Assembly (NCBI GenBank): GCA_964648335.1
Contig: CAZYLZ010000002.1
Span: 13,637-77,636 of the forward strand
Source of the DNA: an uncultured Candidatus Saccharibacteria bacterium
GTDB taxonomy: Bacteria > Patescibacteriota > Minisyncoccia > Phycocordibacterales > UBA2100
Length of the DNA stretch: 64,000 bases
Direction of reading: 5' to 3'
In this document: in pieces, positions 13,571-43,135 of the stretch
How the letters are laid out: each line of letters begins with the position of its first letter
How positions within the stretch are numbered: the stretch's first letter is position 1
Made by a program: the position numbers and the translations under genes
The notes under the pieces: model-generated
Seen by the model: the letters and a program-made list of their open reading frames with translations, nothing else
The model's database searches: none
Told to the model about the DNA's origin: nothing

Positions 13571-14299
13571 ATGACCATACTACTATCGTCCGATCTGCAG
13601 ATTACTGAGTTCGATCCGAGGCACACACGCGGACGTGCTGTCTGGATTCTTGGCTGCGGAACGACTGGCTCTCGTATTGGCGAGGCGCTGGCACGAATGG
13701 GTATCGACCCGGCCCAGATCCATCTGGTCGACGACGATCATGTCGAGTCTGTGAATATCAAGCCACAGCGATACACCCAAGATGACATCGGCCGGCTCAA
13801 GGTAGATGCTTTGGCCGATCATATCAATAAAATCGCACGCTCGCGGCCGCATACCCATGCGAAGCGGTTCAACGGCTCAGAGAAGCTCTCGGGCTATGTG
13901 TTCTTGTGTCTAGACACGCTCGAGGATCGCAGTGCGATCTGGCACCGTGCCATCAAAGACAATGACGATGTCATCATGATGTTCGATGTCGGTATCGGTA
14001 ACTTCAATGGCAAGTACTTCGGCGTGCGACCATGCAATCCTATCCATATCGATCGGTACGAGGCGCATCGTGCAGGAGACTTGGCTGCACAGAAAGAGAT
14101 CCAGGCGATATTGGCGGCACACAACATGTGTGCAACCAAAGCGAACAGGGGTCCGACAGCTGACATCATGTGCGGCATTGTCGAAACTCAGTTCATCAAG
14201 TGGATCGAGGTCGAGAATGGCAATACCGAACCCTTCGAGAATCTGATCGCGTTCTCGATGCGGGGGCAGGCGATGCCGGCCAACGAGATCTGGGGATAG
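13571..14299 (+). CDS. E1-like adenylyltransferase of the ThiF/MoeB/HesA family (242 aa, minimal Rossmann domain)
   Basis: VWILGCGTTGSRIG (GxGxxG), LVDDDHVESVNIKPQRY (matches the DxDxVexSNLnRQ motif), RLKVDAL, YVFLCLDTLEDR (matches DCTDNxxxR), VIMMFDVGIGNFNGKYF. SD GGAGGTG precedes the ATG. Confidence 0.75.
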   Translation: MTILLSSDLQITEFDPRHTRGRAVWILGCGTTGSRIGEALARMGIDPAQIHLVDDDHVESVNIKPQRYTQDDIGRLKVDALADHINKIARSRPHTHAKRFNGSEKLSGYVFLCLDTLEDRSAIWHRAIKDNDDVIMMFDVGIGNFNGKYFGVRPCNPIHIDRYEAHRAGDLAAQKEIQAILAAHNMCATKANRGPTADIMCGIVETQFIKWIEVENGNTEPFENLIAFSMRGQAMPANEIWG

Positions 14300-28551: not shown

Positions 28552-29769
28552 ATGCGGCCCCTCAATCTATCGATTGCAATCGCGATTTCTACGCTCCTTT
28601 CTGCCTCAGTAGCTTTTGCCTGGACCGGCCCAACACAGACCGCACCAGCAGGTAACGTCTCGGCACCCATAAACGTCGGCTCCACCGACCAGGTAAAGAG
28701 CGCATCGTTAGGCGTCAACGGCCTCGCGGTTTTTGGTAACTCGCTATTACAAGCAGCGAGCTATCTTAACTGGGGTGCAACAGCAGGATCTGGAGGATAC
28801 GGCATCCGCGACAACGGGGGCACCCTCGAGTTCAAGAACTCGGCAGGGTCGTGGTCCCCGTTTGGTACCGGTGCACTTACTGGCTCGGGTACGGCAAACT
28901 ACGTCACTAAGTTCGCGGGCGCCTCAACTCTCGGTAGTTCAATCATCTACGACAGTGGTTCGAACGTCGGTATCGGTGCTGGCACGAGTCCTGTGGGTAA
29001 ACTTGAAGTGCGTCACAGTATTGGTACGCAAACAGAAATGCTACGGCTACGATCAAATTTGGCAACGTGGCAATCGTACGGCCTGCTTACTTTTGTTGAT
29101 GATGCAACGGGTCTTGTCGAGTCGCAGATAAAGACGGAGCTGGTATGGGGTTCACCCGAGGTAAAGAGAACATTGACCTTGGGTACAAAAGAGAATCTCG
29201 ATACGTTGAATATTTATAATGGCGGTGTTGCTATAGGGACACGACTACCGACTGCAAAACTTACCGTGGGAACGGCAGGGAGTGCAGGTAGCTCGTACTA
29301 CGATATTGGTGCGGGGAAGATAGCTGCAGGGACTTCTATTTATTCGTACGGTAGCATCTGCGCGGGAAACAATGCAGGCGACTGTTCTGGAGCTGGAGGG
29401 GTCCTACTTACTGCAGCGGGCGCAGTCACTGCAGTTGGAAATGTTACCGCGGCCGCGTTTCTTTATAGCTCTGATCGCAGGCTCAAAGAGCGCATAGCCC
29501 CAATAGCAGACTCTCTATCGAAGACTTTACATCTTTCAGGAGTATCGTACGTTTGGAAAACGGGGCCACGAGCCGGACAGCGCGATATCGGTGTCATCGC
29601 ACAAGACGTAGAAAAAGAGCTGCCAGAAGCGGTCCATACCGACGAAATGGGGATGAAGTCCGTCGACTATCCAAAGCTCACCCCACTTCTCATTAACGCC
29701 ATCAAAGAACAGCAGGCCCAGATAGAACGGCTCGAGGCTCGCATAGAAGCTCTCGAGGCGAAAAAGTGA
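28552..29769 (+). CDS. Secreted fibre-like protein with C-terminal intramolecular-chaperone/autoproteolytic domain (Peptidase_S74, tail-spike chaperone type)
   Basis: Signal peptide; Gly/Ser/Thr/Ala-rich beta-rich body; C-terminus SDRRLKERIAPI...SGVSYVWKTG...GVIAQDVEKELPEAV...VDYPKLTPLLINAIKEQQAQIERLEARIEALEAKK matches the S74 chaperone-of-endosialidase signature. Confidence 0.65.
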   Translation: MRPLNLSIAIAISTLLSASVAFAWTGPTQTAPAGNVSAPINVGSTDQVKSASLGVNGLAVFGNSLLQAASYLNWGATAGSGGYGIRDNGGTLEFKNSAGSWSPFGTGALTGSGTANYVTKFAGASTLGSSIIYDSGSNVGIGAGTSPVGKLEVRHSIGTQTEMLRLRSNLATWQSYGLLTFVDDATGLVESQIKTELVWGSPEVKRTLTLGTKENLDTLNIYNGGVAIGTRLPTAKLTVGTAGSAGSSYYDIGAGKIAAGTSIYSYGSICAGNNAGDCSGAGGVLLTAAGAVTAVGNVTAAAFLYSSDRRLKERIAPIADSLSKTLHLSGVSYVWKTGPRAGQRDIGVIAQDVEKELPEAVHTDEMGMKSVDYPKLTPLLINAIKEQQAQIERLEARIEALEAKK

Positions 29770-29779
29770 CCGTACTTGT

Positions 29780-30193
29780 ATGAACGAACGATCGCATAGC
29801 GAGAGGACGAAGCTCGGCCGCTCGGTCGTGGCACTCGCGTTCGTCGTGGGATGCACGATCGCGCTTGCCGCTCTCGCACCGTCTGTTCGTGCCCCGCTTG
29901 CCTCTGCCGAGACGGATTTTTTTGATGCATCTGCGCGCGGGCTCGGGATATTGCCGGCATCGTGCGCGTCGTCGCCGATGTATTATCACTACCACTCATA
30001 TGTAGCACCCGGTAATACACGCGCGTTCGTCTCGAATACCGGCGAGACGGAATATGGCGCGACACTAGGCGCCGCCGGAACCTATGTTTGTATTACCAAT
30101 GCTACCGGCCTCAATTACTTCGTCCCGGCAAATACTGCAGCTGAGATAAATGCATTCAAGGCAAAAGTGATTCCTGGAATGTCAAAGTGGTAA
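29780..30193 (+). CDS. Secreted hypothetical protein (137 aa)
   Basis: Signal peptide VVALAFVVGCTIALAALAPSVRA; 4-nt overlap with the next gene. Confidence 0.45.
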   Translation: MNERSHSERTKLGRSVVALAFVVGCTIALAALAPSVRAPLASAETDFFDASARGLGILPASCASSPMYYHYHSYVAPGNTRAFVSNTGETEYGATLGAAGTYVCITNATGLNYFVPANTAAEINAFKAKVIPGMSKW

Positions 30194-31011
30194 TGCGAAT
30201 GTTCCGACGCTTCGGTGGAATCTTGCCAGTAGGAACCAATACAAGGGTACTTGTCGCGTTAGTGGGGGGAATGGTGGCTATGGCCCTCATCCTCAGACCC
30301 GTAATGCTCGTAAACGGGCACGAAGCGGTTATGCTCCGATACAACCCAACTGCCGACCGTGCATTTGCCTATGCTGAGCGCCATTTTGATGCCGCTGAAT
30401 CAGAATCGTACGATCTTGTGCGCGCCAAACACTATTTCACGCTCGCGCTTGCACTCGATCCCGCCTTTCCCAGCGTCCGCCACGAGCTCTCGAGGATTGC
30501 GTTTTTGGAAGGTGATTTCGGACGGGCACTGGCATTTATAGACAAAGAAATCATCTTAAATCCGGAACCATCGCCGGCATCGTATTACATACGCGCCCTA
30601 GTAAAGGGATATATGCAAGACTATGAAGGAGCGGCAAAAGATTACGAGACGTACTTTGCTGTCACGCCAGCAAACTGGGCCGCTATCAATGACTACTCGT
30701 GGGTCCTTATGAAGCAAGGACTCTCACAACAGGCGCTCGAAGCCCTCAATTGGGGTCTTGGGCAGTGGCCCGAGAATGCCTGGCTGCTTTCGAACAAGGC
30801 GACCGCACTCTACGATCTTGGGCGAGACGACGACGCTATCGAAACGGCCCGCAACGCACAGAAGGCCGTCAAACTCGTTACCAAGTACGATTGGCTCGTT
30901 GCTTATCCAGGAAATGATCCATTGATTGCAGAAGAAGGTCTCGCGGCGTTTCGCCAAGCGATAGATGAGAACTTAGAACAGATGGAGAAGAAACATCCTG
31001 CACAATACTGA
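30187..31011 (+). CDS. Membrane-anchored TPR-repeat protein
   Basis: N-terminal TM helix; helical repeats of TPR flavour (HYFTLALALDPAF..., YYIRALVKGYMQDYEGAAKDYETYFAV...). Confidence 0.5.
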   Translation: MVMRMFRRFGGILPVGTNTRVLVALVGGMVAMALILRPVMLVNGHEAVMLRYNPTADRAFAYAERHFDAAESESYDLVRAKHYFTLALALDPAFPSVRHELSRIAFLEGDFGRALAFIDKEIILNPEPSPASYYIRALVKGYMQDYEGAAKDYETYFAVTPANWAAINDYSWVLMKQGLSQQALEALNWGLGQWPENAWLLSNKATALYDLGRDDDAIETARNAQKAVKLVTKYDWLVAYPGNDPLIAEEGLAAFRQAIDENLEQMEKKHPAQY

Positions 31012-31324: not shown

Positions 31325-31849
31325 TCAAACAGGACAAACCGGCGGCTTATCTATAGCGCGCGCGAGGTTAAATGCCGATAGTGCAAGGAGCCCCAGACCC
31401 AGATAGCCAATCTCGGCGCCGCGGTAGGGTAAGAGCGTCACGATGCCGATACCACCGGCGTTGGCCGCAAGCGACCAGGCAAGTATCGATCCACATGCGG
31501 CACAGCCAAGCCCGAGCATCCCTGCAAGTGCTGCCCCGAGCGACCCTGCGTATTGCATCTTCGAAGGGAGTGCACGGTTCATTCGTATAAAAAAGAGCGT
31601 GAGCGTGCTCGAAAGGCTAAGCAAAAGCGCGAACAAAAGGGGATACCAAGCCGTCTGAAGGTCGATATCGACGAGAGAAGATACGAAATAGGGACCGAGT
31701 ATCGCAGCTGCCGCGGCAAGCGACCCTGACTCGGTGGCTACGGCGTAGACAAGACGCGCATTCGGTACCCATATCGAGAGTGCATAGAACACGACCGAGA
31801 GTGTGATCAATATAAGCCAGGTCGATCGGCGAGAGAATGCGCGTCGCAT
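31325..31849 (-). CDS. Integral membrane protein with intramembrane CAAC (CxxC) motif (174 aa)
   Basis: Four or five TM helices; GLGCAACGSILAW sits inside a helix. Family not recognised; only three Cys in total, so a VKOR assignment is not supported. Confidence 0.5.
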   Translation of the reverse strand: MRRAFSRRSTWLILITLSVVFYALSIWVPNARLVYAVATESGSLAAAAAILGPYFVSSLVDIDLQTAWYPLLFALLLSLSSTLTLFFIRMNRALPSKMQYAGSLGAALAGMLGLGCAACGSILAWSLAANAGGIGIVTLLPYRGAEIGYLGLGLLALSAFNLARAIDKPPVCPV

Positions 31850-31862
31850 GCAAAAAAGTATA

Positions 31863-33599
31863 TCAGCCCGTACGGGGCTGCGGATCCGACTTCGCTATGC
31901 AATAAAGCTCGTTGGCGAAAGTGGATACGAAGAAGTTCTTGGTCGCAGGATTGTAAGCTGGACGGTTGGTTATGCGTTCGGTTGCCCTAAATACCGAACG
32001 CACGCTCCCGGTTGCAGGATCGAGCTCGGTTAGTCTCCCGGAATTAGCGCCGATATAGAGGCTGCCTTCAATGAGTACCGGAGAGGCGAATATGCGGGCT
32101 GCCGCATCCCATTTCCACAGCACTTTTGCCGAACGAGGATCGAGGCAGTAGAGATTCTTGTCCAGGCACGACACGAACACTTTTCCGTCATGTACAAGCG
32201 GCGTCGAAAAGAAGCCTGCTTCCGCCCCGAAACCAGCACGGAGGCTACCGCTTTTACGATCGATGAACAGTACCGTGCCGTGGGTGTTGGCTGCGACTAG
32301 TGTGTCGGACGACGGATCGTATGCGAGCGATCCTTTTATGTCGAACGAGCTGAACCCGGAATCGAGTTCGGCTTCCGTAGGCCTCCCAGTCTGATGTTTC
32401 CATTTGAGATGGCCAGTCTGTGCGTCGAAAAGATATACAGCCCCGTCGTTGCTTCCTATCGCGACCTCGTTATGAGCCGCAAGATAGAGCGGTGTTGCGT
32501 GTGTGTAGCAGGGCATATCGGTGTAGCTCCAACGTTTGGCGCCTGTTGCGGCATCGAGCGCGACGATACCACCGCGCTTTCTCCAGAGTCCGAACTCGAG
32601 TCCAATGAAGATGACCGTCCCATCTTCATTTGCAATCGGCGACGAGCCGACCCAATCAGCTTCGAGATACACCCATTTCTTTTTTCCGGTTTTGACGTCG
32701 AGCGCGTAGACATTGCCGTCGTATGACCCGAAGCAGACGGTATCGCCGATCACGAGCGGGGAAGAGAATATACCCTTGCCCGAAGCGCTCGATCCGGACC
32801 TGAATGACCAAGCTACCGATCCGTCCGCTTGGTTGAGGGCCCAAAGGATTCCGGTGTCGGATCCGATATAGACACGCTCTGTATCGATAGCAGGATCCGA
32901 TTTAGGTACGACATGCTGGTAGCTCGGGTTGTTGCTCGCGAACTTCCACAATACCTCGTACGAAGGACCAGGTAGGTGAGCGTGCTCGTGTTTCGGTGGG
33001 CTCACCCTGAGTTCTTTCGCAAAATCATCAAGCACGAAGGCTGATCGTACCGCGATGCCTTTGCTCGTGAGACCTGCATAAGCCCCTGTGTCGCGAAACC
33101 TGAGTATCGTCCATACTCCCGACACGGTATGCCCGAGCCTCTCGAGGATCTCGACCTGGCGAAGAATCGATTCTCCGGTGTTCATGAGGTCGTCTACCAG
33201 GATGATTGGACGATTGGGCACGAGCGTGCCTTCGATCATCTGCATAAGCCCGTCGCGCTTGCGGGATTTTCTAACGAAAAAACCGCTCATATCAGCGCGT
33301 CCCGAATCGAATCCTCTGGCGACGATTGCGGCAACGACGGGTATAGCTCCGCTTTCAAGGCCTCCAATCTGGACCGGACCCATATCGGTATGTGTCTCCC
33401 AGAATAGGGTAGCGATATCGCTCATCGACTCGCCGTCGAGAGAGAACTTGCGGAGATCGAACAGCCACCCGTCGTCGCGCACTGTGCCGTTCTTTCGCGA
33501 TATCTTTGCTGTATCCGAGGTAACAAACGCACGGCTTATAATTGCAGATTTGAGGCGTTCGGCTGCGGCTTTGGCATCGGTAGATGTCATAGAGCGCAT
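31863..33599 (-). CDS. Fusion protein: N-terminal type-I phosphoribosyltransferase (OPRT-like) domain plus C-terminal PQQ-like beta-propeller repeats
   Basis: PRPP-binding motif RPIILVDDLMNTGESI, followed by repeated GxxYALDxxTGxxxW and VYxxxxDGxxxxxD blades (e.g. GNVYALDVKTGKKKWVY, GAVYLFDAQTGHLKWKH). Confidence 0.65.
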   Translation of the reverse strand: MRSMTSTDAKAAAERLKSAIISRAFVTSDTAKISRKNGTVRDDGWLFDLRKFSLDGESMSDIATLFWETHTDMGPVQIGGLESGAIPVVAAIVARGFDSGRADMSGFFVRKSRKRDGLMQMIEGTLVPNRPIILVDDLMNTGESILRQVEILERLGHTVSGVWTILRFRDTGAYAGLTSKGIAVRSAFVLDDFAKELRVSPPKHEHAHLPGPSYEVLWKFASNNPSYQHVVPKSDPAIDTERVYIGSDTGILWALNQADGSVAWSFRSGSSASGKGIFSSPLVIGDTVCFGSYDGNVYALDVKTGKKKWVYLEADWVGSSPIANEDGTVIFIGLEFGLWRKRGGIVALDAATGAKRWSYTDMPCYTHATPLYLAAHNEVAIGSNDGAVYLFDAQTGHLKWKHQTGRPTEAELDSGFSSFDIKGSLAYDPSSDTLVAANTHGTVLFIDRKSGSLRAGFGAEAGFFSTPLVHDGKVFVSCLDKNLYCLDPRSAKVLWKWDAAARIFASPVLIEGSLYIGANSGRLTELDPATGSVRSVFRATERITNRPAYNPATKNFFVSTFANELYCIAKSDPQPRTG

Positions 33600-33622
33600 G
33601 ATACACTAGCGGAATATCGCGT

Positions 33623-34918
33623 ATGACCGCACTGAGCAAACGTATCTTCGATTCCGATATCGAGCAGAAACTCATCCGCTGGTACCGTCGCATCTTCTCG
33701 GTACACGAGCTTGAAGAAAGTACCGTCTTACAGTTCGTTTTCGGAGCGACACTCCTATCGCACCTGATCACGTTTTCACAGTGGAGTTCCTCTACTATGA
33801 CCACCGTCGACGCGTACCAGAATGGCATGCATCTCTGCTGGCCCTATTTCCAGGGCTGCGGGAGGCTTTTGTGGCTCCATACGCTGCCCGAAGGGTATTC
33901 GCAGCCCACCTTGTACATGATCTTCTTCGGGCTCTTTCTCTTCATTGCCTACTGCATGTACCGGAAGGATTGGCTCATGGCGCATATCGTTCTCGTTCCT
34001 GCATTTTTATGGCACACATATGTGATATTCGTCCTTACGCAGGCGATGACCGGCAATTACGAGTACTACCTCTTTGTCTTCACCGGGATCTTGCTGTTCT
34101 TGCCGCATAAGGAGTATTTTCTCAAGCTCTCGGTCGTCTCGTTCTATGTTATGTCGACCATGGCCAAGATCCACGAAGCGTGGATTCTCGGCACCTATTT
34201 TTCGGCGCTCAAGACAGGACTTCCGCTGTTCCCAGACTGGTCGATACCGCTTCTTACCAATACGGTCATCTTCATGGAGATGGTCGGATCGTGGTTTCTT
34301 ATGTCGAGGCGATGGCAGCTTCAGCGCTCCGTACTGGCGTTCTTCGTGTTCTTCCATCTCTATTCGGGCATCATCGTCGGTTTTCGATACCCTACTATCG
34401 TGCTTCCTACGATGTTTATCCTCTTCGGACCGCTCTACCGTCATACGGCTCCTCCCTCTACGCGGCGTTCGATAGCGGGTTGGTTGTGCATCGCGCTCCT
34501 TTTCACCATACAGTGCGTACCGAAGCTCATCCCGGGAGACGAGAAGCTCACACTTGAGGGAAATATGTACGGCCTCTACATGTTTGAATCCAATCACCAG
34601 TGTGTGTCCCAGGCGACCGTCCACCGCGCCGACGGCACGACAGAGAACCTTCGTGACGAGAGTACGTCGGCCCGCGATCGTTGCGACCCGTACAGCTACT
34701 GGTTCCGGATACATACGCTCTGCAGTAGGGACGAGAGCATCGACCATGTTGCTTGGACGTTCGACCATTCGATAAACGGCGGACCCTTCCTTCGTATCGT
34801 CGATGTGCAAGACGCCTGCATCCTCAAGTACCATCCGTTCAGACACAACGAATGGATTATGACCGAGAAAGATGCTCCCGAGATGAGGGGGCATCCGGTC
34901 GAGAATATCTATATATGA
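33623..34918 (+). CDS. HTTM-domain (vitamin-K-dependent gamma-carboxylase-like) polytopic membrane protein
   Basis: LQFVFGATLLSHLITF, CWPYFQGC, LPEGYSQPTLYMIFFGLFLFIAYCMYRKDWLMAHIVLVPAFLWHTYVIFVLTQAMTGNYEYYLFVFTGILLFLP follow the HTTM pattern (L.FRI.FG.L...; YR.S...F.L.Y.Y.FLLD.T..NNH.YL). Confidence 0.6.
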   Translation: MTALSKRIFDSDIEQKLIRWYRRIFSVHELEESTVLQFVFGATLLSHLITFSQWSSSTMTTVDAYQNGMHLCWPYFQGCGRLLWLHTLPEGYSQPTLYMIFFGLFLFIAYCMYRKDWLMAHIVLVPAFLWHTYVIFVLTQAMTGNYEYYLFVFTGILLFLPHKEYFLKLSVVSFYVMSTMAKIHEAWILGTYFSALKTGLPLFPDWSIPLLTNTVIFMEMVGSWFLMSRRWQLQRSVLAFFVFFHLYSGIIVGFRYPTIVLPTMFILFGPLYRHTAPPSTRRSIAGWLCIALLFTIQCVPKLIPGDEKLTLEGNMYGLYMFESNHQCVSQATVHRADGTTENLRDESTSARDRCDPYSYWFRIHTLCSRDESIDHVAWTFDHSINGGPFLRIVDVQDACILKYHPFRHNEWIMTEKDAPEMRGHPVENIYI

Positions 34919-35109
34919 ACCAATATACTGACATGATCTACGTTCTCGGAGGACTTGCTGGAAACGAACCGACGCATCTCGGACCGATACAGCTCTACCT
35001 TCTCGAGTATTTTCCAGCCGCCATGGTGTTCTGGTGGACTGTGCTCGCATGCACGCTCGCAACGGTCATAGCGTTGACCGTTCGGGATGTCATTAGGCAG
35101 CTCAGATAA
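34915..35109 (+). CDS. Small membrane protein (64 aa), translationally coupled to the HTTM gene (ATGA overlap)
   Basis: ATG overlaps the upstream stop (atatATGAac); hydrophobic helices VFWWTVLACTLATVIALTV. Confidence 0.4.
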   Translation: MNQYTDMIYVLGGLAGNEPTHLGPIQLYLLEYFPAAMVFWWTVLACTLATVIALTVRDVIRQLR

Positions 35110-35167
35110 GGCAGTGTTGTCCACACGAGCATATAATCGCACCGAGTCATCCCGGTATACTGGGCTC

Positions 35168-35641
35168 ATGCTTCCTAATCAGCGTGGCGTTGCGGCATAT
35201 GTAGTTGTCTCGATCGTAACGCTTATCGTGACAGCGGCCGTTATCTACCTCACACCGCTCAAAAACATCGCAATCATCGAGCCTTCGATACTCGACCAGA
35301 CGCCGCTCGCGTTCAATGCAGAATATACGTCCGATCCGACCCAGTACCTGTTTATCGATGTCCGCCCTTCAGATGCATATAATCGTGCCCATGCACCCGG
35401 CGCTATCAGTATGCCGCTCCATACCCTCTACAACACGCGACACTCGCTCCCTAAGTCGGAAAAGGAGATTGTGCTTATTTGCAACGAAGGCATCGCTTCC
35501 GGCGTTGGGTACCATTATCTGCAGCATTTCGGATTCTTCAATATCCGCCGTATCGGAGGCGGGATGGAGAAATGGATAGCAGATGGCCTTCCGGTTGAAG
35601 GGACGGCAGTGGCACCTACGGGCACTGCATCGACGCCATAG
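35168..35641 (+). CDS. Membrane-anchored single-domain rhodanese (sulfurtransferase) protein
   Basis: TM anchor; YLFIDVRPSDAYNRAHAPGAISMP...EIVLICNEGIASGVG carries the rhodanese active-site Cys loop. Confidence 0.7.
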   Translation: MLPNQRGVAAYVVVSIVTLIVTAAVIYLTPLKNIAIIEPSILDQTPLAFNAEYTSDPTQYLFIDVRPSDAYNRAHAPGAISMPLHTLYNTRHSLPKSEKEIVLICNEGIASGVGYHYLQHFGFFNIRRIGGGMEKWIADGLPVEGTAVAPTGTASTP

Positions 35642-35669
35642 CAACCCGTAGTTCGGGTATACTTACGAC

Positions 35670-35948
35670 ATGGAAGCTTTCCTTAAACGTTCTCTCAAAC
35701 TAATCTCGTACAGCGCGCTTGCGCTTGCTGGTGTCGTTGCGTCGGGTGTGTGGCACGACGCGGGACAGAAATCGGGTCATACGGTGACCCGCAAAGAAGA
35801 GATTAAGAACTCCTTGTTTGCCGGTATCGCTCATGCTGATGCGCCATGCAGCGGTTACGGATGTGCCTCCTTGTTCGGAACTTCGGGAGGAGGAGGAGAT
35901 GGGGGAGGTGATTGCGGTGATGGGGGAGGTGGGGACGACTGCAATTAA
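35670..35948 (+). CDS. Small secreted protein with Gly/Asp/Cys-rich C-terminal tail (92 aa)
   Basis: Signal peptide LISYSALALAGVVASGV; tail APCSGYGCASLFGTSGGGGDGGGDCGDGGGGDDCN. Confidence 0.45.
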   Translation: MEAFLKRSLKLISYSALALAGVVASGVWHDAGQKSGHTVTRKEEIKNSLFAGIAHADAPCSGYGCASLFGTSGGGGDGGGDCGDGGGGDDCN

Positions 35949-35985
35949 TCGGTATCTGTCCAATCCTTATTTTTCATAGAGCTGC

Positions 35986-37137
35986 ATGGATACACAAAAC
36001 CCCAATTTGATGGCAAAAAAGATGGTGTTGATTATCGTCCCCGGCATAGTACTCGGGGTATTGTTGTATGCAGGATACCTCTGGAACCAAAGAGCAACTG
36101 TGCCAGAGGTCTCTGACTTGCCGCCGATTGAAGCAAATGCTCATAATGGGCTTTCGTACCAAAATTTACTCGAGAACAGTATCTCGTTCGCTCGCGCGGT
36201 TCAGTACGCGAAGGACCGAAATTTCGCTCTCGCACGCGAGTATTACGAGAAGGCGAAACTCGAGACGACCGATCCGACCGCACAGGGCATCATCATGTTC
36301 CAAATGGCGATACTCACGGGCGACGAAGGGAAGTACCTTGAGTCGATCGATGCCCTCAAAGAGATAATCGCTAAGGCCGACGTAACCTCGCCGGTCACGC
36401 GGGCATACGCCTTTCTCGAGATGGGTCTTTTGTTCTATAAATATGCCGACAATGCCATTACTGATCGTATCTTCGCGGGCGATGTCTATTACAAGAAGCT
36501 CCGCGACGACGATGTGAAGGTCACCTACCGGCATCTCTTCGAGGAGTCTGCGCGCCTGTATCCGTTGTCGCTCTCGGAGCTGCGCATCGCTGATTGGTAC
36601 GTGAACGAAATAACGCTGGCCGAGAAGGGAGAGAAGGTGCTCGATCCGGTTAAGCGGCCTGAGTACGAGAAAATAATCGGAGACTCGCTCATCGCTGCCG
36701 ACGCAGATCTTGTGCGTATCCAGAATCTTCCGAGCGAATACGCTCGCTACGGATTGCCGGCACTCTTGCGTAAGGCAATCATCGTCGGGAAGCTGAATGC
36801 CATCGGTAATGGCAGTTTGGGGCCGGTGGAAGCAGTCTTCGATAAGGCGCTCAATGCCTATGCTACGCGCCCTGGTGCCGACGGCTACGTCCGCTACCAC
36901 TATGCCGACGCGCTCTCGAACCAGCCCGGGGAGATTCCTGTGGCTAAGATACGCACACTCTTGAGTCCGCTTTACGATCAGAAGGAGGTCTACAAGACGT
37001 CGTCGGTACTATCGTTTCTCAAGAACGAACGTGCAAACGTGCTTAACGTCAAGAAGGATATAGTGAAGCTCGCAAAAATCGATCCCAAGTTCAAGGAGCT
37101 CCTCATGTCCTATGGCTGGAAGTCGAGTGACTTCTAG
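35986..37137 (+). CDS. Membrane-anchored alpha-helical (TPR-like) hypothetical protein (383 aa)
   Basis: N-terminal TM helix MVLIIVPGIVLGVLLYAGYLW; helical repeat body. Confidence 0.5.
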   Translation: MDTQNPNLMAKKMVLIIVPGIVLGVLLYAGYLWNQRATVPEVSDLPPIEANAHNGLSYQNLLENSISFARAVQYAKDRNFALAREYYEKAKLETTDPTAQGIIMFQMAILTGDEGKYLESIDALKEIIAKADVTSPVTRAYAFLEMGLLFYKYADNAITDRIFAGDVYYKKLRDDDVKVTYRHLFEESARLYPLSLSELRIADWYVNEITLAEKGEKVLDPVKRPEYEKIIGDSLIAADADLVRIQNLPSEYARYGLPALLRKAIIVGKLNAIGNGSLGPVEAVFDKALNAYATRPGADGYVRYHYADALSNQPGEIPVAKIRTLLSPLYDQKEVYKTSSVLSFLKNERANVLNVKKDIVKLAKIDPKFKELLMSYGWKSSDF

Positions 37138-37150
37138 ACCTGATCCTCCT

Positions 37151-37864
37151 ATGAAAAAACTCATATCGTCTTTGCCAGCCTCGGCAGCGCCCTGGCGTCT
37201 CTGGGGTGCCATTCTCATACTTGCTGTCATGACGACTCTCGCAGCATTCTCGTATATGCGCATCGAGGCACCAAAGGTACAAACAGGAACGTCAGCTGTC
37301 GGGGGAGTGGGAGATCAGCGTGACCATGTACTCGGCGAAGCAGCAGCTGACGTCAGGGTCATACTCTATTCAGACACCGAGTGCCCGTTCTGCAACAGCT
37401 TCCATGACTATTCTCTGCCGAAGATCCTCGACGAGTACGGCTCACGGGTCGCGGTGGTGTACCGACACTATCCAATCGTAACCTTACATCCCAATGCACG
37501 CATCGAGGCAGATGCGACCGAGTGCGCGTATGAGCAAAAGGGGCATGAGGGTTTTTGGGCGCTCCTCGATGCGCTCTATACCGCTATCGACAAAGAGAAC
37601 ACGTTCGATATCGCCCAGATACCCCAGCTGGCTCAGGAGGTCGGACTCGATCCGGTACGTCTCGAGAAATGCATTGATTCCGGGCAGGGCGATGTCTGGG
37701 TGAAGAAAAACATGGATCAAGCGACGACCGTGGGCGTCTACAAGACACCTACGGTGTATGTCGAGAACGTACAGACTGGTAAGAGCGTGCTCATTGCTGG
37801 TGCCGGCTTTACGGCGACCAAAGCTGCTATCCAACTGCTTCTGACGCAAGTATCAGTCCAATAG
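37151..37864 (+). CDS. DsbA-family thiol:disulfide oxidoreductase, membrane-anchored
   Basis: Thioredoxin-fold active site TECPFCNSFH (CPFC) and the DsbA helical insertion; ATG at 37151 precedes a TM helix. Confidence 0.75.
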   Translation: MKKLISSLPASAAPWRLWGAILILAVMTTLAAFSYMRIEAPKVQTGTSAVGGVGDQRDHVLGEAAADVRVILYSDTECPFCNSFHDYSLPKILDEYGSRVAVVYRHYPIVTLHPNARIEADATECAYEQKGHEGFWALLDALYTAIDKENTFDIAQIPQLAQEVGLDPVRLEKCIDSGQGDVWVKKNMDQATTVGVYKTPTVYVENVQTGKSVLIAGAGFTATKAAIQLLLTQVSVQ

Positions 37865-37878
37865 CATCTGCGAGCTTC

Positions 37879-39069
37879 TTATAAGTGCCGAGCGATGGTT
37901 TCTGCGATGATGCGGTAACCTCCTACTATAGGGTGCCCGTTGTTGATGCGTTCGTAAAGCGGAATCGACTTATTGAGTTCAATCGCCATATCGCGAAGTG
38001 GAAATACGCAATCGATCTTTTCTGTAATGCAAAAATCAGTAACCGCCGATGAGAGGTTTCGTTCGGCCCATTCGTACTCTTCGAAGCCGGGTATGGTAGT
38101 ACTCGCCATTCGCGCAGATTCGAGATAGACCATTTCCTTTGTCGGTATAAATACAATCAAAAGCTGTGCACCGGCCTCCTTTGTTCCGTCATGCATCTCG
38201 CGTAAGAAAGATTTGGTGAGCCTCCATCCCTCCTTTGTTGTCGCGTTGGTGAGGTCGACTGCGGGGTATCGATATGACGGCGAAAGTATCGTTCCGGTGA
38301 TACCCTCGAGACGGATTCCGAGGCCCGGATGGCTCTGGAGAAGCGTATCGAATCGATTTTTCCTTTCCTCAGGAGTTTCTCCCAGAGGCGATTGCCACCA
38401 TGCGTATGCGAAGTCTGCATCGAGTATCTCGAAGATCCTGCTGTATCCACGGGCTATCTGTCTGAACCTGGTGAACTTGTTCCAAAAAGAACCCGGAGCG
38501 TACCCATCGTCGAGCGCGATGCTCGTATCGATGAGTGTGTCAGTGATATCTGTTGAATACACAAACGAAGAATCACGGTACGGCGTCCAGTACGCTAATC
38601 GATATACTTGATCAACAGAACCCAATAGATCGTTTCCGGCGTACAAGCCTACTACCACCGTCTTTGGCTTGAGCGATAGGGCGGTCGGCAAAAGTGCTCT
38701 GTATTGAGCAGGTCCCCAGCCGACATGTGCCAGTTGATACACCGCTTTCCCCGAGATGGTTTCGAGTTGTGCAGGCCACGATTCGATTCGAAGTGCCTTG
38801 TATCCGAACGTCTGCGAATCACCAATCGCTACTATATCTGCCTGATCGACGGCTTTAAGATTACGAAATCCCCGGCTGTCGTATTCTCCCCCGGGACGCG
38901 CCCGTACGTCGAGAACCGCATCTGATAAGGGTGTATTGGGAGATGGCAACCATATACGTAACAGCACCTCTGACGTCGTTAGTGCAAGCAGTGCTCCCAC
39001 AGCAATCGCGAAGTAACGCATCCGACACCGGAGGAGTCTGTGAATCATGCTTTTTTTGCTCGCGCCCAC
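37879..39069 (-). CDS. SGNH/GDSL-family hydrolase-like protein, membrane-anchored
   Basis: N-terminal TM; IVAIGDSQTFG (GDSx block I) and later DxxH-like region; start ambiguous, with several in-frame Met codons (39048 or 39021) overlapping the upstream MTase stop. Confidence 0.5.
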   Translation of the reverse strand: MGASKKSMIHRLLRCRMRYFAIAVGALLALTTSEVLLRIWLPSPNTPLSDAVLDVRARPGGEYDSRGFRNLKAVDQADIVAIGDSQTFGYKALRIESWPAQLETISGKAVYQLAHVGWGPAQYRALLPTALSLKPKTVVVGLYAGNDLLGSVDQVYRLAYWTPYRDSSFVYSTDITDTLIDTSIALDDGYAPGSFWNKFTRFRQIARGYSRIFEILDADFAYAWWQSPLGETPEERKNRFDTLLQSHPGLGIRLEGITGTILSPSYRYPAVDLTNATTKEGWRLTKSFLREMHDGTKEAGAQLLIVFIPTKEMVYLESARMASTTIPGFEEYEWAERNLSSAVTDFCITEKIDCVFPLRDMAIELNKSIPLYERINNGHPIVGGYRIIAETIARHL

Positions 39070-39659
39070 ACGTGATACGGGAGCTCAGGTTCGTTCACGA
39101 GACTGTGTTCTCCCGGTCGATACTCCACCCAGCTGGCTAGGTTATCGACGACGCACGCGCGGTTTCCCCATGAGCCGGTCTCGATATATTCGAGCGGAAA
39201 GCCGCCCTCGGCCAAGAGATGCTTGAGTCCGAGTTCTGTCCAGCGACTGCAGTCGACCGGGTCATTGTGAACCCGCACGAGAAACGGAGTAGACACTAAA
39301 AAATACCCCCCTGGCCTGAGCGAATCGTATACATTTTTAACGGCACGATATGGCCAGAACACGTGTTCGAGCACTTGTTCGGCAATGACGAGGTCGTATT
39401 GCTTGGGCAAAACGTCTTTGCAGAGATCGAAGGCGGGAAAGTGCACAGAATCGTACGACTTGAATCCAAAATCGCTCCAAGCGTTTCCCGATATCTCCAC
39501 GGTCTCCAGTGTCTCGACAGGCAGAGCGCGGACGAGCTGCTTTGTCGCGTCATTCATGATGACGCGGCTCCAATTCGTGCGATTTTCTTTTTTTGCTGTT
39601 TTCAGAACAGGCTTAGTTTGGTCATTTCCAAAAGAAAACCCCGGGAACCATGAGTGCAT
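39045..39659 (-). CDS. Class I SAM-dependent methyltransferase
   Basis: DLVIAEQVLEHV and LRPGGYFLVSTP Rossmann MTase motifs; the real start may be the internal MNDATKQ (about 39557). Confidence 0.6.
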   Translation of the reverse strand: MHSWFPGFSFGNDQTKPVLKTAKKENRTNWSRVIMNDATKQLVRALPVETLETVEISGNAWSDFGFKSYDSVHFPAFDLCKDVLPKQYDLVIAEQVLEHVFWPYRAVKNVYDSLRPGGYFLVSTPFLVRVHNDPVDCSRWTELGLKHLLAEGGFPLEYIETGSWGNRACVVDNLASWVEYRPGEHSLVNEPELPYHVWARAKKA

Positions 39660-39760
39660 GAGTGGATTCTGTGGGGCGATGATGCTGTTGTCAATTCGAC
39701 TTTGTAGAGAGTGATGTTCTCTGGGAGTGACGGTAAACGCTCCGCTGTATACTGGGGGCC

Positions 39761-41761
39761 ATGGAGCCGGCGATACGCTATTCGGTCATCGTTCCGACCT
39801 ACGACAGGGTCGACGATCTCGAGACCTGTCTCGAGTCGCTCGTCGTACAGACGGCGAAAAATTTTGAAGTGATCATTGTCGACGATTGTTCGGGTCCCGA
39901 GACGCGCGCATTTGTCGAAACGTTTATTGCTAAGTATCCGCATATCCCGTCCCGGTACGTGCGACAAGAAAAAAACGGTGGACATGGGAAGGCGCGCAAT
40001 GCAGGAATGGCCATTGCGCGCGGCGAGATACTCTTGTTTACAGACGACGACTGCATCCTTCCGCCCGAATGGGTCGCTACGCATGCCGATGCGCATGTGC
40101 GGTATCCAGAAGCTGCAGGAGTAGGGGGTTGGTACTGGCCGCCAGCAGATCGTCCCAAGAACGTGTTCGATCGCTTTTACGAGATCCAGTACCGGTACTC
40201 GTACCAAGGTATGCATGATTGCGAAGTGTGGACCAATACAATGAGTTCGCTTGCGGGCAATACCGCGAATATGTCGTACAAGACAGACCTCATCCGCGCT
40301 CTCAATGGTTTCGACGAGGCTATCTACTTTACCGGCGGCATAGACTGGGAGCTCAAGACACGCATGATCGCAACCGGACGTTCGCTCGTCTCGATTCCAC
40401 TTTCGGTTGTGCACACCAAAGCATTCACCCTCCGATCGTTTCTATCGAAGACGATCAAGCTGGGGAGAGGGATGGATTACATGGCAAGTAAATACAAAGT
40501 AGTACAGCGCCCAAGTCTCAGATTCGCTCTCGGTACCTATAGTACTTGGAAGACGAACCCGGTTATCGGCGGGGAGTGCGCGTGGGTCGCGCTGCTATGG
40601 ACTTTGGCGCTCATCCCCGGCAAATGGGTCAATCGCCTGCGACATTTTCGTCCGAGAGAAGTATTTGACATGCGGAGTCTCAAATATTTCACCTACCGAT
40701 ACAAGAATGCTGCACGTATTTCGATGCACGAGATTCGAAAATTTGACCTTGAAGCGTCGGCCGCTCAGCTGGAAAAAGTGTTGCAAGGAGCCGGTTCGAC
40801 ATTGCGGTACTCGGTGATCATTCCGACTTTTAACCGAAGGGAGTATCTCGTGGTCGCTATCGAAGCGGTCCTTTCGCAAGAGCGCGTGCCGACACAACTC
40901 TTCGAATTAGTGGTCGTTGATGATGGCTCTACCGACGGGACCAAAGAAGCTGTCGAAGCCATCATCGCTGCGCACCCTGAGCGCGCGATACGGTATCTCT
41001 ATCAGCCTAACGCAGGTGCTTCCGTTGCGCGAAATGCAGGTGCTGCCGTGGCGGTAGGTAACATCCTTTTCTTCACCGACAGTGATTGCCGCGTTCCCAG
41101 GCACTGGCTGTGGAATATGCTCCAGGCGTATGAACAGTATCCCGAAATAGTCGGCACCGGTGGTGGGCAGCTGACGCGGAGAAAGGGGGCAACGCGGCTC
41201 GATCATTTCAGGGCGACCGCATCCGACAATCGTTTCGTTGCTACGTATCGCGACGCGATCATTATTTCAAACGATACCGTTTCTGGTATCGTGGCGTACG
41301 ATTCGGCGAGCATGTCGATTCGCGCAGACGTGTACAGGGAAGTAGGGGGGTTCTTTCCGATAGGGAGTACCGCCGTCGGTTTTTATCATGAGGATGTCGA
41401 TCTTGCCTGCCGGGTGCAGCGCAGGGGTCCTATGGCTTTGGTTCCTGGTGCCTTTGCCATGAACCGTCGCCTCCTTTCTTTTTCCGACTTTCGGAAGGTG
41501 GCATACGTACGAGGAGCGACACTCCCATTTCTCATAGAGCGGCTTTCGCCGGCAGCGACCTCGGTGTGCGAAACGCCACTTCGAGAGCAGGTGTTCATTA
41601 CCTTACTGCTCTGCCTCATGCGTCCGTTCGATATCGGCAGCTGGCTCTGGCTCGTGAATCTTGAACGATATGCCGCCGGGTATCGCCGCGGGCTCGCGGT
41701 CCAAGCCCAAGAGCGCGACTTCTCGGTTGAGGAGACAAAAACGGCTAAAAGCACCAAATAG
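39761..41761 (+). CDS. Tandem double glycosyltransferase family 2 (GT2) protein
   Basis: Two GT-A modules: YSVIVPTYDRVDDLETCLESLVVQT...VIIVDDCSGPET...FTDDDC and YSVIIPTFNRREYLVVAIEAVLSQ...LVVVDDGSTDGT...FTDSDC. Confidence 0.8.
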   Translation: MEPAIRYSVIVPTYDRVDDLETCLESLVVQTAKNFEVIIVDDCSGPETRAFVETFIAKYPHIPSRYVRQEKNGGHGKARNAGMAIARGEILLFTDDDCILPPEWVATHADAHVRYPEAAGVGGWYWPPADRPKNVFDRFYEIQYRYSYQGMHDCEVWTNTMSSLAGNTANMSYKTDLIRALNGFDEAIYFTGGIDWELKTRMIATGRSLVSIPLSVVHTKAFTLRSFLSKTIKLGRGMDYMASKYKVVQRPSLRFALGTYSTWKTNPVIGGECAWVALLWTLALIPGKWVNRLRHFRPREVFDMRSLKYFTYRYKNAARISMHEIRKFDLEASAAQLEKVLQGAGSTLRYSVIIPTFNRREYLVVAIEAVLSQERVPTQLFELVVVDDGSTDGTKEAVEAIIAAHPERAIRYLYQPNAGASVARNAGAAVAVGNILFFTDSDCRVPRHWLWNMLQAYEQYPEIVGTGGGQLTRRKGATRLDHFRATASDNRFVATYRDAIIISNDTVSGIVAYDSASMSIRADVYREVGGFFPIGSTAVGFYHEDVDLACRVQRRGPMALVPGAFAMNRRLLSFSDFRKVAYVRGATLPFLIERLSPAATSVCETPLREQVFITLLLCLMRPFDIGSWLWLVNLERYAAGYRRGLAVQAQERDFSVEETKTAKSTK

Positions 41762-41935: not shown

Positions 41936-43135
41936 ATGGCAGATTTTGCTCGAACAAAGCCCCACGTGAACGTCGGTACCATCGGTCACGTCGACCACGG
42001 TAAGACTACGCTCACTGCGGCAATCCTCCACACCCTCCACATGGCGGCTGGACAGGGATACGGCGCCACCGAGAAGGGTGTCGACGCTATCGACTCCGCA
42101 CCAGAAGAGAAGGCACGTGGTATTACTATCTCGCTCTCGCACTCCGAGTACGAGACACCGAAGCGCCACTACGCGCACATCGACGCTCCTGGTCACGCAG
42201 ACTATATCAAGAACATGATCACGGGTGCCGCTCAGATGGACGGTGCAATCTTGGTTATCGCGGCGACTGACGGTGTTATGCCTCAGACACGCGAGCACGT
42301 TCTCTTGGCTAAGCAGGTCGGCGTTCCAAAGATCATCGTCTTCTTGAACAAGGTAGACATGGTTGAGGACAAAGACCTCATCGACCTCGTCGAGGAGGAG
42401 GTCCGCGAACTCTTGGACAAGCAGGGCTTCGACGGCGCAAACACGCCGATCATCCGCGGTTCGGGCCTTAAGGCTCTCGAGTCAACCGACATCAACAGCG
42501 AGTGGTCTCAGAAGGTTCTCGAGCTTGCGAAAGCTCTCGACGAATACATCCCAGAGCCAAAGCGCGAACTCGACAAGCCATTCCTTATGCCAATCGAAGA
42601 CATCTTCTCGATCGAAGGACGCGGAACCGTGGTTACGGGCCGCATCGAGCGCGGAGTTGTGAAAGTTGGTGAGGAAGTCGAGATTGTCGGTCTTCAGGAC
42701 ACCGCAAAGACGACCGTAACCGGCGTCGAGATGTTCAACAAGTCGCTCCAGCAGGGAGAGGCAGGTGACAACGCAGGAATCCTCTTGCGCGGTACCAAGA
42801 AGGACGACGTCCACCGCGGACAGGTTCTCTGCAAGACCGGATCGGTAAAGCCACACACCGAATTCGAGGCAGAAATCTACATCTTGTCTAAAGAAGAAGG
42901 AGGTCGCCACACTCCATTCTTTAGCGGATACAAGCCACAGTTCTACATCGGTACTACCGACGTGACTGGCGAGGTTACCCTTAAGGAAGGTGTCGAAATG
43001 GTTATGCCAGGCGATACCGTTACCTTCAAGGTCAAGCTCGTAGCTCCGATCGCTCTCGAAGAGCAGCGCCGCTTTGCGGTTCGCGAAGGAGGCAAGACTG
43101 TCGGTGCCGGAGTCGTCACCAAGGTCATTGCGTAA
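41936..43135 (+). CDS. tuf: Elongation factor Tu
   Basis: [22 protein letters not shown] and NKVD motifs; 399 aa. Confidence 0.95.

Follow-up and report, generated by a model that had tools for sequence, protein, structure and literature searches.

A putative cell-envelope peptide-maturation cluster with a membrane protein of predicted vitamin K-dependent carboxylase fold in a candidate phyla radiation bacterium

In this study, we analysed a window of 64,000 nucleotides (the whole stretch of DNA examined, positions 13,637 to 77,636 of contig CAZYLZ010000002.1, GenBank assembly GCA_964648335.1, from an uncultured Candidatus Saccharibacteria bacterium), in which a 4.2-kb cluster of six genes, here called G1 to G6, encodes a polytopic membrane protein, a mini protein, a rhodanese, a Cys-tailed peptide, a helical membrane protein and a DsbA-like oxidoreductase (Table 1). 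The read-out of open reading frames (ORFs) placed all six on the plus strand at the expected coordinates, and the stop codon of G1 (TGA, 34916-34918) shares bases with the start codon of G2 (ATG, 34915-34917) in an ATGA overlap read directly from the sequence, thus the tight same-strand packing described in an initial annotation of this DNA is real. With the gene starts of an independent Joint Genome Institute (JGI) annotation of the identical contig, the intergenic gaps from G1 to G6 are -4, 58, 28, 37 and 13 bp. An alternative upstream start of G3 at 35087 would overlap G2 by 23 bp, and the JGI start at 35168 is more likely; for G6, which has an alternative start at 37112, the likely start is 37151, which leaves the 13-bp gap after G5. 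Each of G2, G3, G4, G5 and G6 carries one hydrophobic anchor helix, and Cys residues number one in G3, none in G5 and four in G4, all of the latter in its tail. Scans for promoter- and terminator-like sites within the six-gene block gave counts at chance level, with which a single G1-G6 transcription unit is compatible, though not thereby proven. Gene neighbourhoods were compared across 79 loci from species-representative genomes, using our own ORF calling and clustering and hidden Markov models (HMMs) run on six-frame ORFs. The order G1-mini-rhodanese-peptide-G5...DsbA is repeated in locus L034 and nearly so in L016, so the six-gene arrangement is not a product of chance, and the conservation of gene order elsewhere, which the initial annotation had proposed as a check, was found.

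Table 1. Features of the cluster and of its immediate surroundings, in window coordinates
Feature	Coordinates	Strand	Description and basis
G1	33623..34918	+	431-aa polytopic membrane protein; predicted vitamin K-dependent gamma-carboxylase fold: transmembrane core plus small extracytoplasmic alpha/beta domain
G2	34915..35109	+	64-aa single-pass protein, putative G1 partner; family HMM match
G3	35168..35641	+	membrane-anchored single-domain rhodanese, PF00581
G4	35670..35948	+	92-aa putative precursor peptide; transmembrane/signal anchor, linker, Gly/Asp tail with four Cys
G4 junction motif I-A-H-A-D-A-P, residues 53-59	35826..35846	+	between leader and tail; consensus across loci
G5	35986..37137	+	383-aa all-helical TPR-like solenoid with N-terminal membrane anchor; AlphaFold2 model
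G6	37151..37864	+	membrane-anchored DsbA/BdbD-like thiol-disulfide oxidoreductase, CPFC site plus second Cys pair
PRTase-like domain fused to PQQ/BamB-type beta-propeller, cytoplasmic	31863..33599	-	Pfam and NCBIfam matches
TPRc2, membrane-anchored TPR protein	30187..31011	+	TPR Pfam matches; family HMM E 1e-88
c26, 174-aa four-transmembrane-helix protein, GCAACG and C-terminal PPVCP motifs	31325..31849	-	conserved Cys motifs in homologs

Scans of G1 against Pfam and NCBIfam returned no match even at E≤10, PF05090 (HTTM) included; PF05090 likewise matched none of 54 diverse G1-family members at E≤1, and a PDB sequence search with a G1 profile gave no match at E≤10. An AlphaFold2 model of G1 built from 41 homologs reached pLDDT 86 and pTM 0.87, and the top 14 matches of this model in a Foldseek search against the PDB were all chains of human GGCX (E 1e-8 to 4e-6; TMq 0.57-0.62, ~460 columns, ~15% identity), the next-best non-GGCX match having an E of 0.5. 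G1 is thus predicted by modelling to have the vitamin K-dependent gamma-carboxylase (VKGC) fold, with a transmembrane (TM) core and a lumenal domain. An alignment of the G1 family (A3: 54 members, down to 24% identity) was compared by hhalign with the GGCX reference sequence, which had been checked against the PDB, and gave E 6.8e-5 at a probability of 63% over 316 columns, while the narrower alignment A1 gave E 0.019. The VKGC lumenal domain PF22777 matched 6 of the 54 members weakly (best 1.3e-3), and the G1 of the window gave no such match. The initial annotation had called G1 HTTM/VKGC-like and had named failure of HMM searches to place it in the HTTM family as the outcome that would count against it; that failure was indeed observed and is outweighed by the fold and hhalign evidence, so the assignment survives at the level of fold and motif and lapses at the level of PF05090 and NCBIfam profiles.

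The hhalign comparison pairs K182 and W187 of G1 with K218 and W223 of GGCX, a pairing found in two independent alignments (HMMER fragments and hhalign), and F244/H245 with F286/H287; N145 pairs with N158 or N159, and C367 with C450, which in GGCX forms a structural disulfide with C99. In GGCX, Lys218 is the catalytic base that deprotonates the quinol and Trp223 keeps it in place, and the residues of the Glu and CO2 sites comprise Asn159, His160, Tyr395, Phe299, which stacks CO2, and Asp263 (PMC12647623). Among the 54 family members K182 is kept in 51 and W187 in all, and K182, W187, H245, C367 and C399 are each kept in 51 to 54 members. K182/W187, F244/H245, N145 and six Cys are invariant among close homologs; the first outer loop holds an invariant CX6C pair (C72/C79), and four further outer Cys are conserved.

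More than 500 close homologs of G1 were found, all of them hypothetical proteins devoid of Pfam domains and mostly from Kaiserbacteria/Paceibacteria-type bacteria of the candidate phyla radiation (CPR), and an exhaustive profile search of 1.84 billion proteins returned 709 representatives at 50% identity, 287 of them at E≤1e-30. The G1 family is a small clade, isolated at the sequence level, and horizontal spread of this family among host-dependent or predatory bacteria is suggested. The proteobacterial-type G1 proteins, from metagenome-assembled genomes labelled Micavibrio, Rickettsiales, Caenarcanales or Bdellovibrio-like, have ~45% identity to the CPR proteins, and some of their genes are wedged between rpoC and rpsL-rpsG-fusA. 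As side observations, MauE (best 5e-7) and DoxX matches were seen in 3 of the 54 members, and one member (P0219, 674 aa) carries a C-terminal pentapeptide-repeat extension.

The coupled mini-membrane protein noted earlier proved real. G2 is matched at E 1e-15 by an HMM of the c4 family, built from the small ORFs found after G1 in other loci. Of 83 G1 copies, 51 have a G2 homolog just downstream and 13 more carry one as a fusion, eight times at the C-terminus (eight CPR-type or other sequences) and five times at the N-terminus (five alphaproteobacterial sequences). G2 has a TM helix at residues 36-54, a basic C-terminus and, in its outward N-terminal segment, a GNEPT-like motif kept from CPR bacteria to Proteobacteria; the predicted N-out/C-in topology fits fusion at either end of G1. 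Neither DUF5819 nor any other Pfam family matched G2. Because of this adjacency and of the fusions at both ends of G1, G2 is predicted to be an obligate single-pass subunit of G1. The mini protein is often fused N-terminally to G1 in loci L053, L057, L060, L071, L073, L042 and L048, duplicate G1 copies stand in tandem or nearby in L028, L035, L042 and L047, and the second G1 copy of L047 has mini-protein domains at both ends.

G4 starts with a basic N-terminus and a TM/signal helix (residues 9-27) and ends in GGGGDGGGDCGDGGGGDDCN, with four positionally conserved tail Cys (C60, C65, C82 and C91). The Cys-bearing tail reported in the initial annotation was therefore found as described, and the peptide is better described as signal-anchored or leader-bearing than as plainly secreted. 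Pfam and NCBIfam gave nothing useful for G1, G2, G4 and G5, and a homolog search with G4 returned only 3 relatives, because the sequence is low-complexity and fast-evolving, and the family was recovered by position and motif instead of by homology search. Directly upstream of G5-family genes, the small ORF invariably has the same build: after a basic N-terminus and a single TM helix come a linker of ~15-30 residues, a junction [VI]-A-[HYS]-A-[DE]-[AV]-P and a tail of Gly, Asp, Ser and Cys, sometimes Glu; the AHAD(A/V)P junction is a candidate recognition or cleavage site. Motif and tail together occurred in 30 of 20,001 six-frame ORFs (G4 and 29 related ones); 24 of these immediately precede a G5-family gene on their own strand, most of the others adjoining a second uncharacterised family of ~410 aa. 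The peptides closest to G4, at 43-59% identity, share the tail GGGGDGGGDCGDGGGGDDC and the four Cys exactly, which argues for selection on the tail.

The partner of this peptide, G5, was modelled by AlphaFold2 (pLDDT 87) as an all-helical solenoid on an N-terminal anchor, in agreement with the membrane-anchored helical protein described earlier; its best Pfam match is TPR_Slam at a weak E of 0.14, and a homolog search returned 17 matches, one homolog carrying PF09976. An enzymatic role of G5 was rejected, as it is a pure helical solenoid with no Cys and no catalytic-domain match. We conclude that the G4 family, defined by a TM anchor, the AHAD(A/V)P junction, a Gly/Asp/Ser/Cys tail and a dedicated partner resembling tetratricopeptide repeat (TPR) proteins, is previously undescribed. 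A second peptide type, with a T-[AV]-S-A-D junction and a Ser/Gly/Asp tail (L014:3381-3644, L035:3285-3614, L062:6426-6710 and L064:6352-6663), adjoins the c3/c22 families (~410-430 aa) in place of G5, and the two may form paralogous peptide-partner modules.

The rhodanese and the DsbA-like protein of the initial annotation were both upheld by profile matches. G3 matched PF00581 at E 2.6e-14 (53.9 bits against a cutoff of 22.2), its sole Cys lying in the CNEGIAS loop and its TM helix at residues 8-26; matches to NCBIfam GlpE and PspE were partial and did not reach the equivalog cutoffs, so that G3 is a member of the rhodanese family (PspE/GlpE-like) and not an equivalog of either. G6 matched Thioredoxin_4 (PF13462; 3.3e-22, 79.9 bits against 23.2) and DSBA (PF01323; 5.3e-10, 39.8 bits against 25.6), with the CPFC motif at residues 78-81 of the 237-aa form. 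Rhodanese and DsbA genes occurred nearly always together and only in G5-containing loci, a DsbA-like gene lying directly downstream of the G5 family in L085, L086, L090, L024 and L047. Of the 24 tails with YcaO/SagB or DsbA/rhodanese genes nearby, 22 contain Cys, as does 1 of the 8 tails without such genes (Fisher p = 8e-5, over loci that are not phylogenetically independent), and all 11 DsbA/rhodanese loci with an identified peptide had at least one tail Cys. Because the thiol genes covary with tail Cys and are confined to G5 loci, we infer that G6 and G3 act on the peptide cysteines, and the dedicated peptide- or thiol-modification pathway at the cell surface that had been suggested earlier fits this covariation.

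A further thiol component might be c26, which has no Pfam match, carries its GCAACG motif within a TM helix and keeps its Cys motifs in four homologs. These adjoin G1, YcaO or adenylating-enzyme (c9) genes in L027, L046, L065 and L086, the one in L086 lying upstream of peptide-G5-DsbA. For the DsbA/rhodanese pair, c26 could act as a thiol-redox relay in the membrane, its membership in the system being uncertain. TPRc2 is possibly part of the same system too, its homologs directly following G5 (c5) or the DsbA of the peptide-G5(-DsbA) module in L085-L093.

The neighbourhoods of the 65 CPR-type G1 loci point to a wider set of partners. The commonest CPR neighbour of G1-G2 is the PRTase-like/beta-propeller gene (52 loci), either divergent from G1 or co-directional after the mini protein; within 8 kb, the G5 family was found in 29 loci, and YcaO in 24, a nitroreductase-fold (SagB-type) dehydrogenase in 22, a DCC1-like thiol oxidoreductase in 13, and rhodanese and DsbA-like genes in 9 each. 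The sister-locus dehydrogenase exceeded the NCBIfam SagB-family cutoff (TIGR03605, 126.6 versus 78.4 bits), and the sister-locus YcaO had its best match, below the cutoff, in TIGR03604, the SagD family of thiazole/oxazole-modified microcin (TOMM) systems. YcaO, SagB, G1 and the mini gene are tightly packed and co-directional in this order in L025, L037, L038, L045, L050 and L052, with a YcaO-SagB overlap of 4 bp in four of the six and a SagB-G1 spacing of -10 to +35 bp, usually followed by the propeller gene and divergent from peptide-G5. This layout is TOMM-like and typical of a cluster for ribosomally synthesised peptides that are modified after translation (RiPPs). HMMs built from the sister loci found no YcaO, SagB, DCC1-like, adenylating or PP-loop gene in the 64-kb window. 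In L025, L050, L005, L086 and others the propeller gene has a PP-loop ATPase gene next to it, together with genes for PaaK/F390-synthetase-like adenylating enzymes, often as a tandem pair, a hint of further tailoring steps that are missing from the window. In the window itself the propeller gene and G1 diverge from start codons only 23 bp apart (33600-33622), which leaves no room for two conventional promoters.

Loci without these accessory enzymes bear on the tie between G1-G2 and the peptide. Four loci (L004, L007, L010 and L021) have G1, mini, peptide and G5 side by side on one strand; the tails are Cys-free poly-Asp/Gly in the first three and hold one Cys in L021. Within 8 kb on either side no YcaO, SagB, DsbA or rhodanese gene was found in these four, and the unassigned c3 and beta-propeller genes are near. 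With a rhodanese added, this order is seen again in L016, L034 and the window, L034 having the order of the window plus flanking YcaO and SagB genes.

Taken together, we interpret the cluster as an extracytoplasmic (cell-envelope) peptide-maturation cluster of two conserved and separable modules in which G1-G2 would tailor the acidic tail, a reading to which we give an even chance. G1 and G2 would form a two-subunit integral-membrane enzyme of VKGC/HTTM fold with the Lys-Trp dyad kept, and the other module would comprise G4, a ribosomal precursor tethered by its anchor or leader, and G5, together with G3 and G6. After export of the G4 tail, G5 might bind the leader or the junction and present the tail, the four Cys of which would be oxidised by G6 to two disulfides, with G3, the single-Cys PspE-like rhodanese, as a putative thiol or sulfane-sulfur helper of G6. 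G1-G2, using membrane quinol, O2 and CO2 (or a strong base so generated), would then tailor acidic residues, the likeliest reaction being carboxylation of Asp (or Glu) by analogy with GGCX and MloH, and cleavage at AHA|D might free the product. In sister loci the same peptide family would additionally or alternatively be processed by a SagD-type YcaO and a SagB-type dehydrogenase, and because of this the window may be assigned to a family of TOMM-like RiPP clusters in Paceibacteria-type CPR bacteria, as a disulfide-type variant that lacks YcaO. Tailoring of the acidic G4 tail is probably the task of the carboxylase-like enzyme, and Asp carboxylation is the most specific guess that the analogy allows; the full proposal, that G1-G2 is a quinol- and O2-dependent carboxylase adding CO2 to Asp (or Glu) of an exported G4-type tail and that its clade spread to predatory or parasitic Proteobacteria, we regard as unlikely.

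Several observations weigh against this interpretation. All 17 loci labelled as proteobacterial or Bdellovibrio-like (Micavibrio, Rickettsiales, Caenarcanales and Pseudobdellovibrionaceae) contain G1 and the mini gene only, in varying contexts and with no accessory gene. A G5-centred metagenome scan gave 11 loci, of which three long ones have no G1 within 10 kb, and L085 has the order propeller/rhodanese-peptide-G5-DsbA-TPR and no G1 in its 4.8-kb contig. A single indivisible six-gene operon was accordingly rejected, as the G5-centred metagenome loci and the proteobacterial G1 loci stand apart, and the treatment of the six genes as one system in the initial annotation does not hold. Most loci come from related Paceibacteria, so part of the synteny may be inherited rather than selected. 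The homology of G1 to GGCX rests on a predicted structure and a moderate hhalign score (probability 63%), and the G1 profile run by HMMER against GGCX did no better than 2000 locally shuffled controls, yielding only collinear motif fragments. GGCX Asp263 pairs with an E/Q position in the G1 family, His160 with Tyr, Phe or Glu, and Phe299 possibly with Val252 of G1; these three residues are not clearly kept and no clear counterpart of Tyr395 emerged, so carboxylase chemistry of G1 is not assured. Foldseek matched G5 to TPR superhelices only, and weakly (best E 7e-3, TMq 0.25-0.39), no protease for the AHA|D site was identified, and each maturation step is deduced from sequence. To our knowledge, CPR bacteria are generally thought to lack quinone biosynthesis, and they often live without O2.

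Such points lend themselves to a different reading, doubtful in our view, in which G1-G2 is an autonomous membrane enzyme acting on a substrate unrelated to G4 (an envelope protein, a lipid or a quinone-related reaction) and merely shares a conserved Paceibacteria envelope island with an independent RiPP-like peptide module. The solitary G1-mini pairs of the proteobacterial-labelled loci, for example between rpoC and rpsL, the peptide-G5 modules with no G1 within 10 kb and the presence of G5 in fewer than half of the CPR-type G1 loci (29/65 within 8 kb) speak for this reading; yet in at least six loci G1 shows translational packing with YcaO and SagB, and it directly precedes the peptide gene in at least seven amid extensive rearrangement elsewhere, and the loci with Cys-free or single-Cys (L021) tails offer no other enzyme candidate beside the peptide, except the c3 and beta-propeller genes. 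It is also conceivable, and distinctly unlikely, that G4-type proteins are not processed products at all and serve as permanent membrane-anchored, polyanionic and cation-binding surface peptides, for which G5 and TPR proteins would be assembly partners, DsbA and rhodanese would only stabilise, and G1 would be irrelevant or would add charge. An N-terminal TM anchor is unusual for a RiPP leader, the Asp/Gly-rich and often Cys-free tails are like Ca-binding repeats, several paralogous peptide-partner pairs occur per locus, and no leader peptidase or exporter was found; however, a bona fide SagB-family dehydrogenase and a SagD-like YcaO adjoin many members, whose tails are then Cys/Ser-rich like azole-peptide cores, and the conserved AHAD(A/V)P junction resembles a processing or recognition site.

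The conserved outer Cys of G1 raise another prospect, which we consider improbable, namely that G1-G2 is a quinone-linked thiol oxidase, analogous to DsbB/VKOR or MauE, that re-oxidises G6 or DCC1-like proteins. Besides the invariant C72/C79 pair and the four further Cys, the DsbA (9/65) or DCC1-like (13/65) genes of G1 loci and the MauE or DoxX matches in 3 of 54 members are in line with it, and a DsbB- or VKOR-like neighbour of the cluster was not noticed, though neither was searched for in the rest of the window. Against a thiol oxidase, C367 pairs with the structural-disulfide Cys450 of GGCX, the most conserved residues are the quinol-deprotonating Lys-Trp dyad and not a redox CXXC, and a thioredoxin-fold neighbour is missing from most G1 loci. 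That the operon is an accidental packing of unrelated genes of a small genome, with G2 and G4 as spurious ORFs, has almost no likelihood: compact CPR genomes do make short gaps common and the promoter and terminator scans are uninformative, but other genomes retain G2 and fuse it to G1, motif and position are conserved in the G4 family, and the recurrent gene order and the covariation contradict accident. A two-module envelope peptide-maturation cluster thus seems to us the best account of the locus.

Other genes were noted around the cluster. Upstream, just before the TPR genes, lies a 405-aa protein (28552-29769, plus strand) with PF13884 (Peptidase_S74, an endosialidase-type tail-fibre intramolecular chaperone domain) in the JGI annotation. 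Downstream, the region 37879-41761 encodes a GDSL-like hydrolase and a methyltransferase on the minus strand and a 666-aa double GT2 glycosyltransferase on the plus strand, which looks like an envelope glycan set that does not accompany the cluster in other loci. The EF-Tu gene begins 4 kb downstream, at 41936, and in several sister loci the cluster is next to the tuf-S10 operon. No tRNA gene, and no Rfam family at gathering score, was found in the whole 64-kb window.

In animals, vitamin K-type carboxylation is a known modification of proteins; its sole bacterial precedent, MloH, concerns a small molecule. Should G1 act on Asp-rich precursors, a new RiPP modification and a function for bacterial HTTM-like proteins would follow, and should G1-G2 carboxylate G4-type tails, a RiPP would for the first time be seen carboxylated, and bacteria would for the first time be seen to perform vitamin K-type carboxylation of a protein; CPR bacteria, believed not to synthesise quinones themselves, would then have to draw on those of a host. 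Independently of G1, Paceibacteria-type CPR bacteria, deemed biosynthetically poor, carry a modular and rapidly rearranging peptide-maturation island, which could serve host interaction or metal binding, and the cluster carries a realistic chance of new chemistry.

Among known systems, the TOMM or linear azole clusters, such as those of microcin B17 (McbBCD) and streptolysin S (SagBCD), are like the G4 family in their Gly/Ser/Cys-rich precursor cores, and in the sister loci the direct neighbours of the precursor gene include those for a SagD-like YcaO and a SagB-family dehydrogenase. A small precursor of TOMM type, with a leader and a Gly/Cys/Ser-rich core beside enzymes, was recognised in G4 and the 29 related ORFs. 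In contrast to TOMM clusters, the window has neither YcaO nor SagB in its 64 kb, and the leader has a TM anchor and the AHAD(A/V)P junction; known TOMM clusters include no VKGC-fold enzyme, TPR partner, DsbA or rhodanese, and no SagC or E1-like protein was recognisable. Surveys give YcaO-type RiPP clusters in CPR genomes only as antiSMASH counts, and a limited literature search found no account of a TOMM-like operon with a VKGC-fold enzyme, nor of the G4 peptides or the TPR-like protein that partners them. G3 is comparable to periplasmic PspE in being a rhodanese of one domain and one Cys, in its place outside the membrane and in its CN.G..S loop, and G6 is a CxxC DsbA; unlike their counterparts in PspE- and DsbA-type oxidative folding, both are membrane-anchored, form a co-inherited pair and are tied to one peptide family.

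SdpB of the Bacillus subtilis SdpABC toxin system is an HTTM-type membrane protein, and the SDP peptide carries a disulfide. HTTM proteins occur in linaridin clusters, too (CrdG and others; PMC9927463). Like G1 as envisaged here, these are HTTM-family membrane proteins needed for, or associated with, the maturation of an exported ribosomal peptide; the linaridin and SDP precursors are unrelated to G4, and the HTTM proteins are likened to G1 by description only. A closer chemical precedent is MloH of malonomycin biosynthesis, described as a bacterial VKGC orthologue that carboxylates an aspartyl residue (Law et al. 2018), Asp being the residue that dominates G4-type tails. MloH differs from G1 in that its substrate is an intermediate of a polyketide synthase-nonribosomal peptide synthetase pathway and not a ribosomal peptide, and in being recognisably HTTM, and it too is likened by description only. 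In view of MloH and of the linaridin clusters, the statement of the initial annotation that bacterial HTTM proteins have no established function is outdated.

In the split bacterial architecture predicted for HTTM(-DCC1) proteins with a DUF5819 single-TM partner (bioRxiv 10.64898/2026.08.19.745780), an HTTM-fold core is completed by a single-pass partner, as putatively in G1-G2, and the DCC1-like association has its parallel in 13 of 65 sister loci; G2 is much smaller than the DUF5819 partner, and G1 already has an outer domain of its own. From human GGCX, G1 differs in lacking the jelly-roll clamp B and the C-terminal domain, its sole outer domain being small and clamp-A-like, and in its separate 64-aa single-pass subunit, its six conserved outer Cys and its CPR host. 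It nevertheless resembles GGCX in the predicted fold, in the counterparts of the Lys218/Trp223 dyad and of Phe286/His287, in an Asn at or next to Asn159 and in a Cys aligned with Cys450, as well as in the predicted outward (lumenal) orientation of its active side, and G1 and G4 together seem to follow the same substrate logic, an N-terminal recognition segment and then an acidic stretch.

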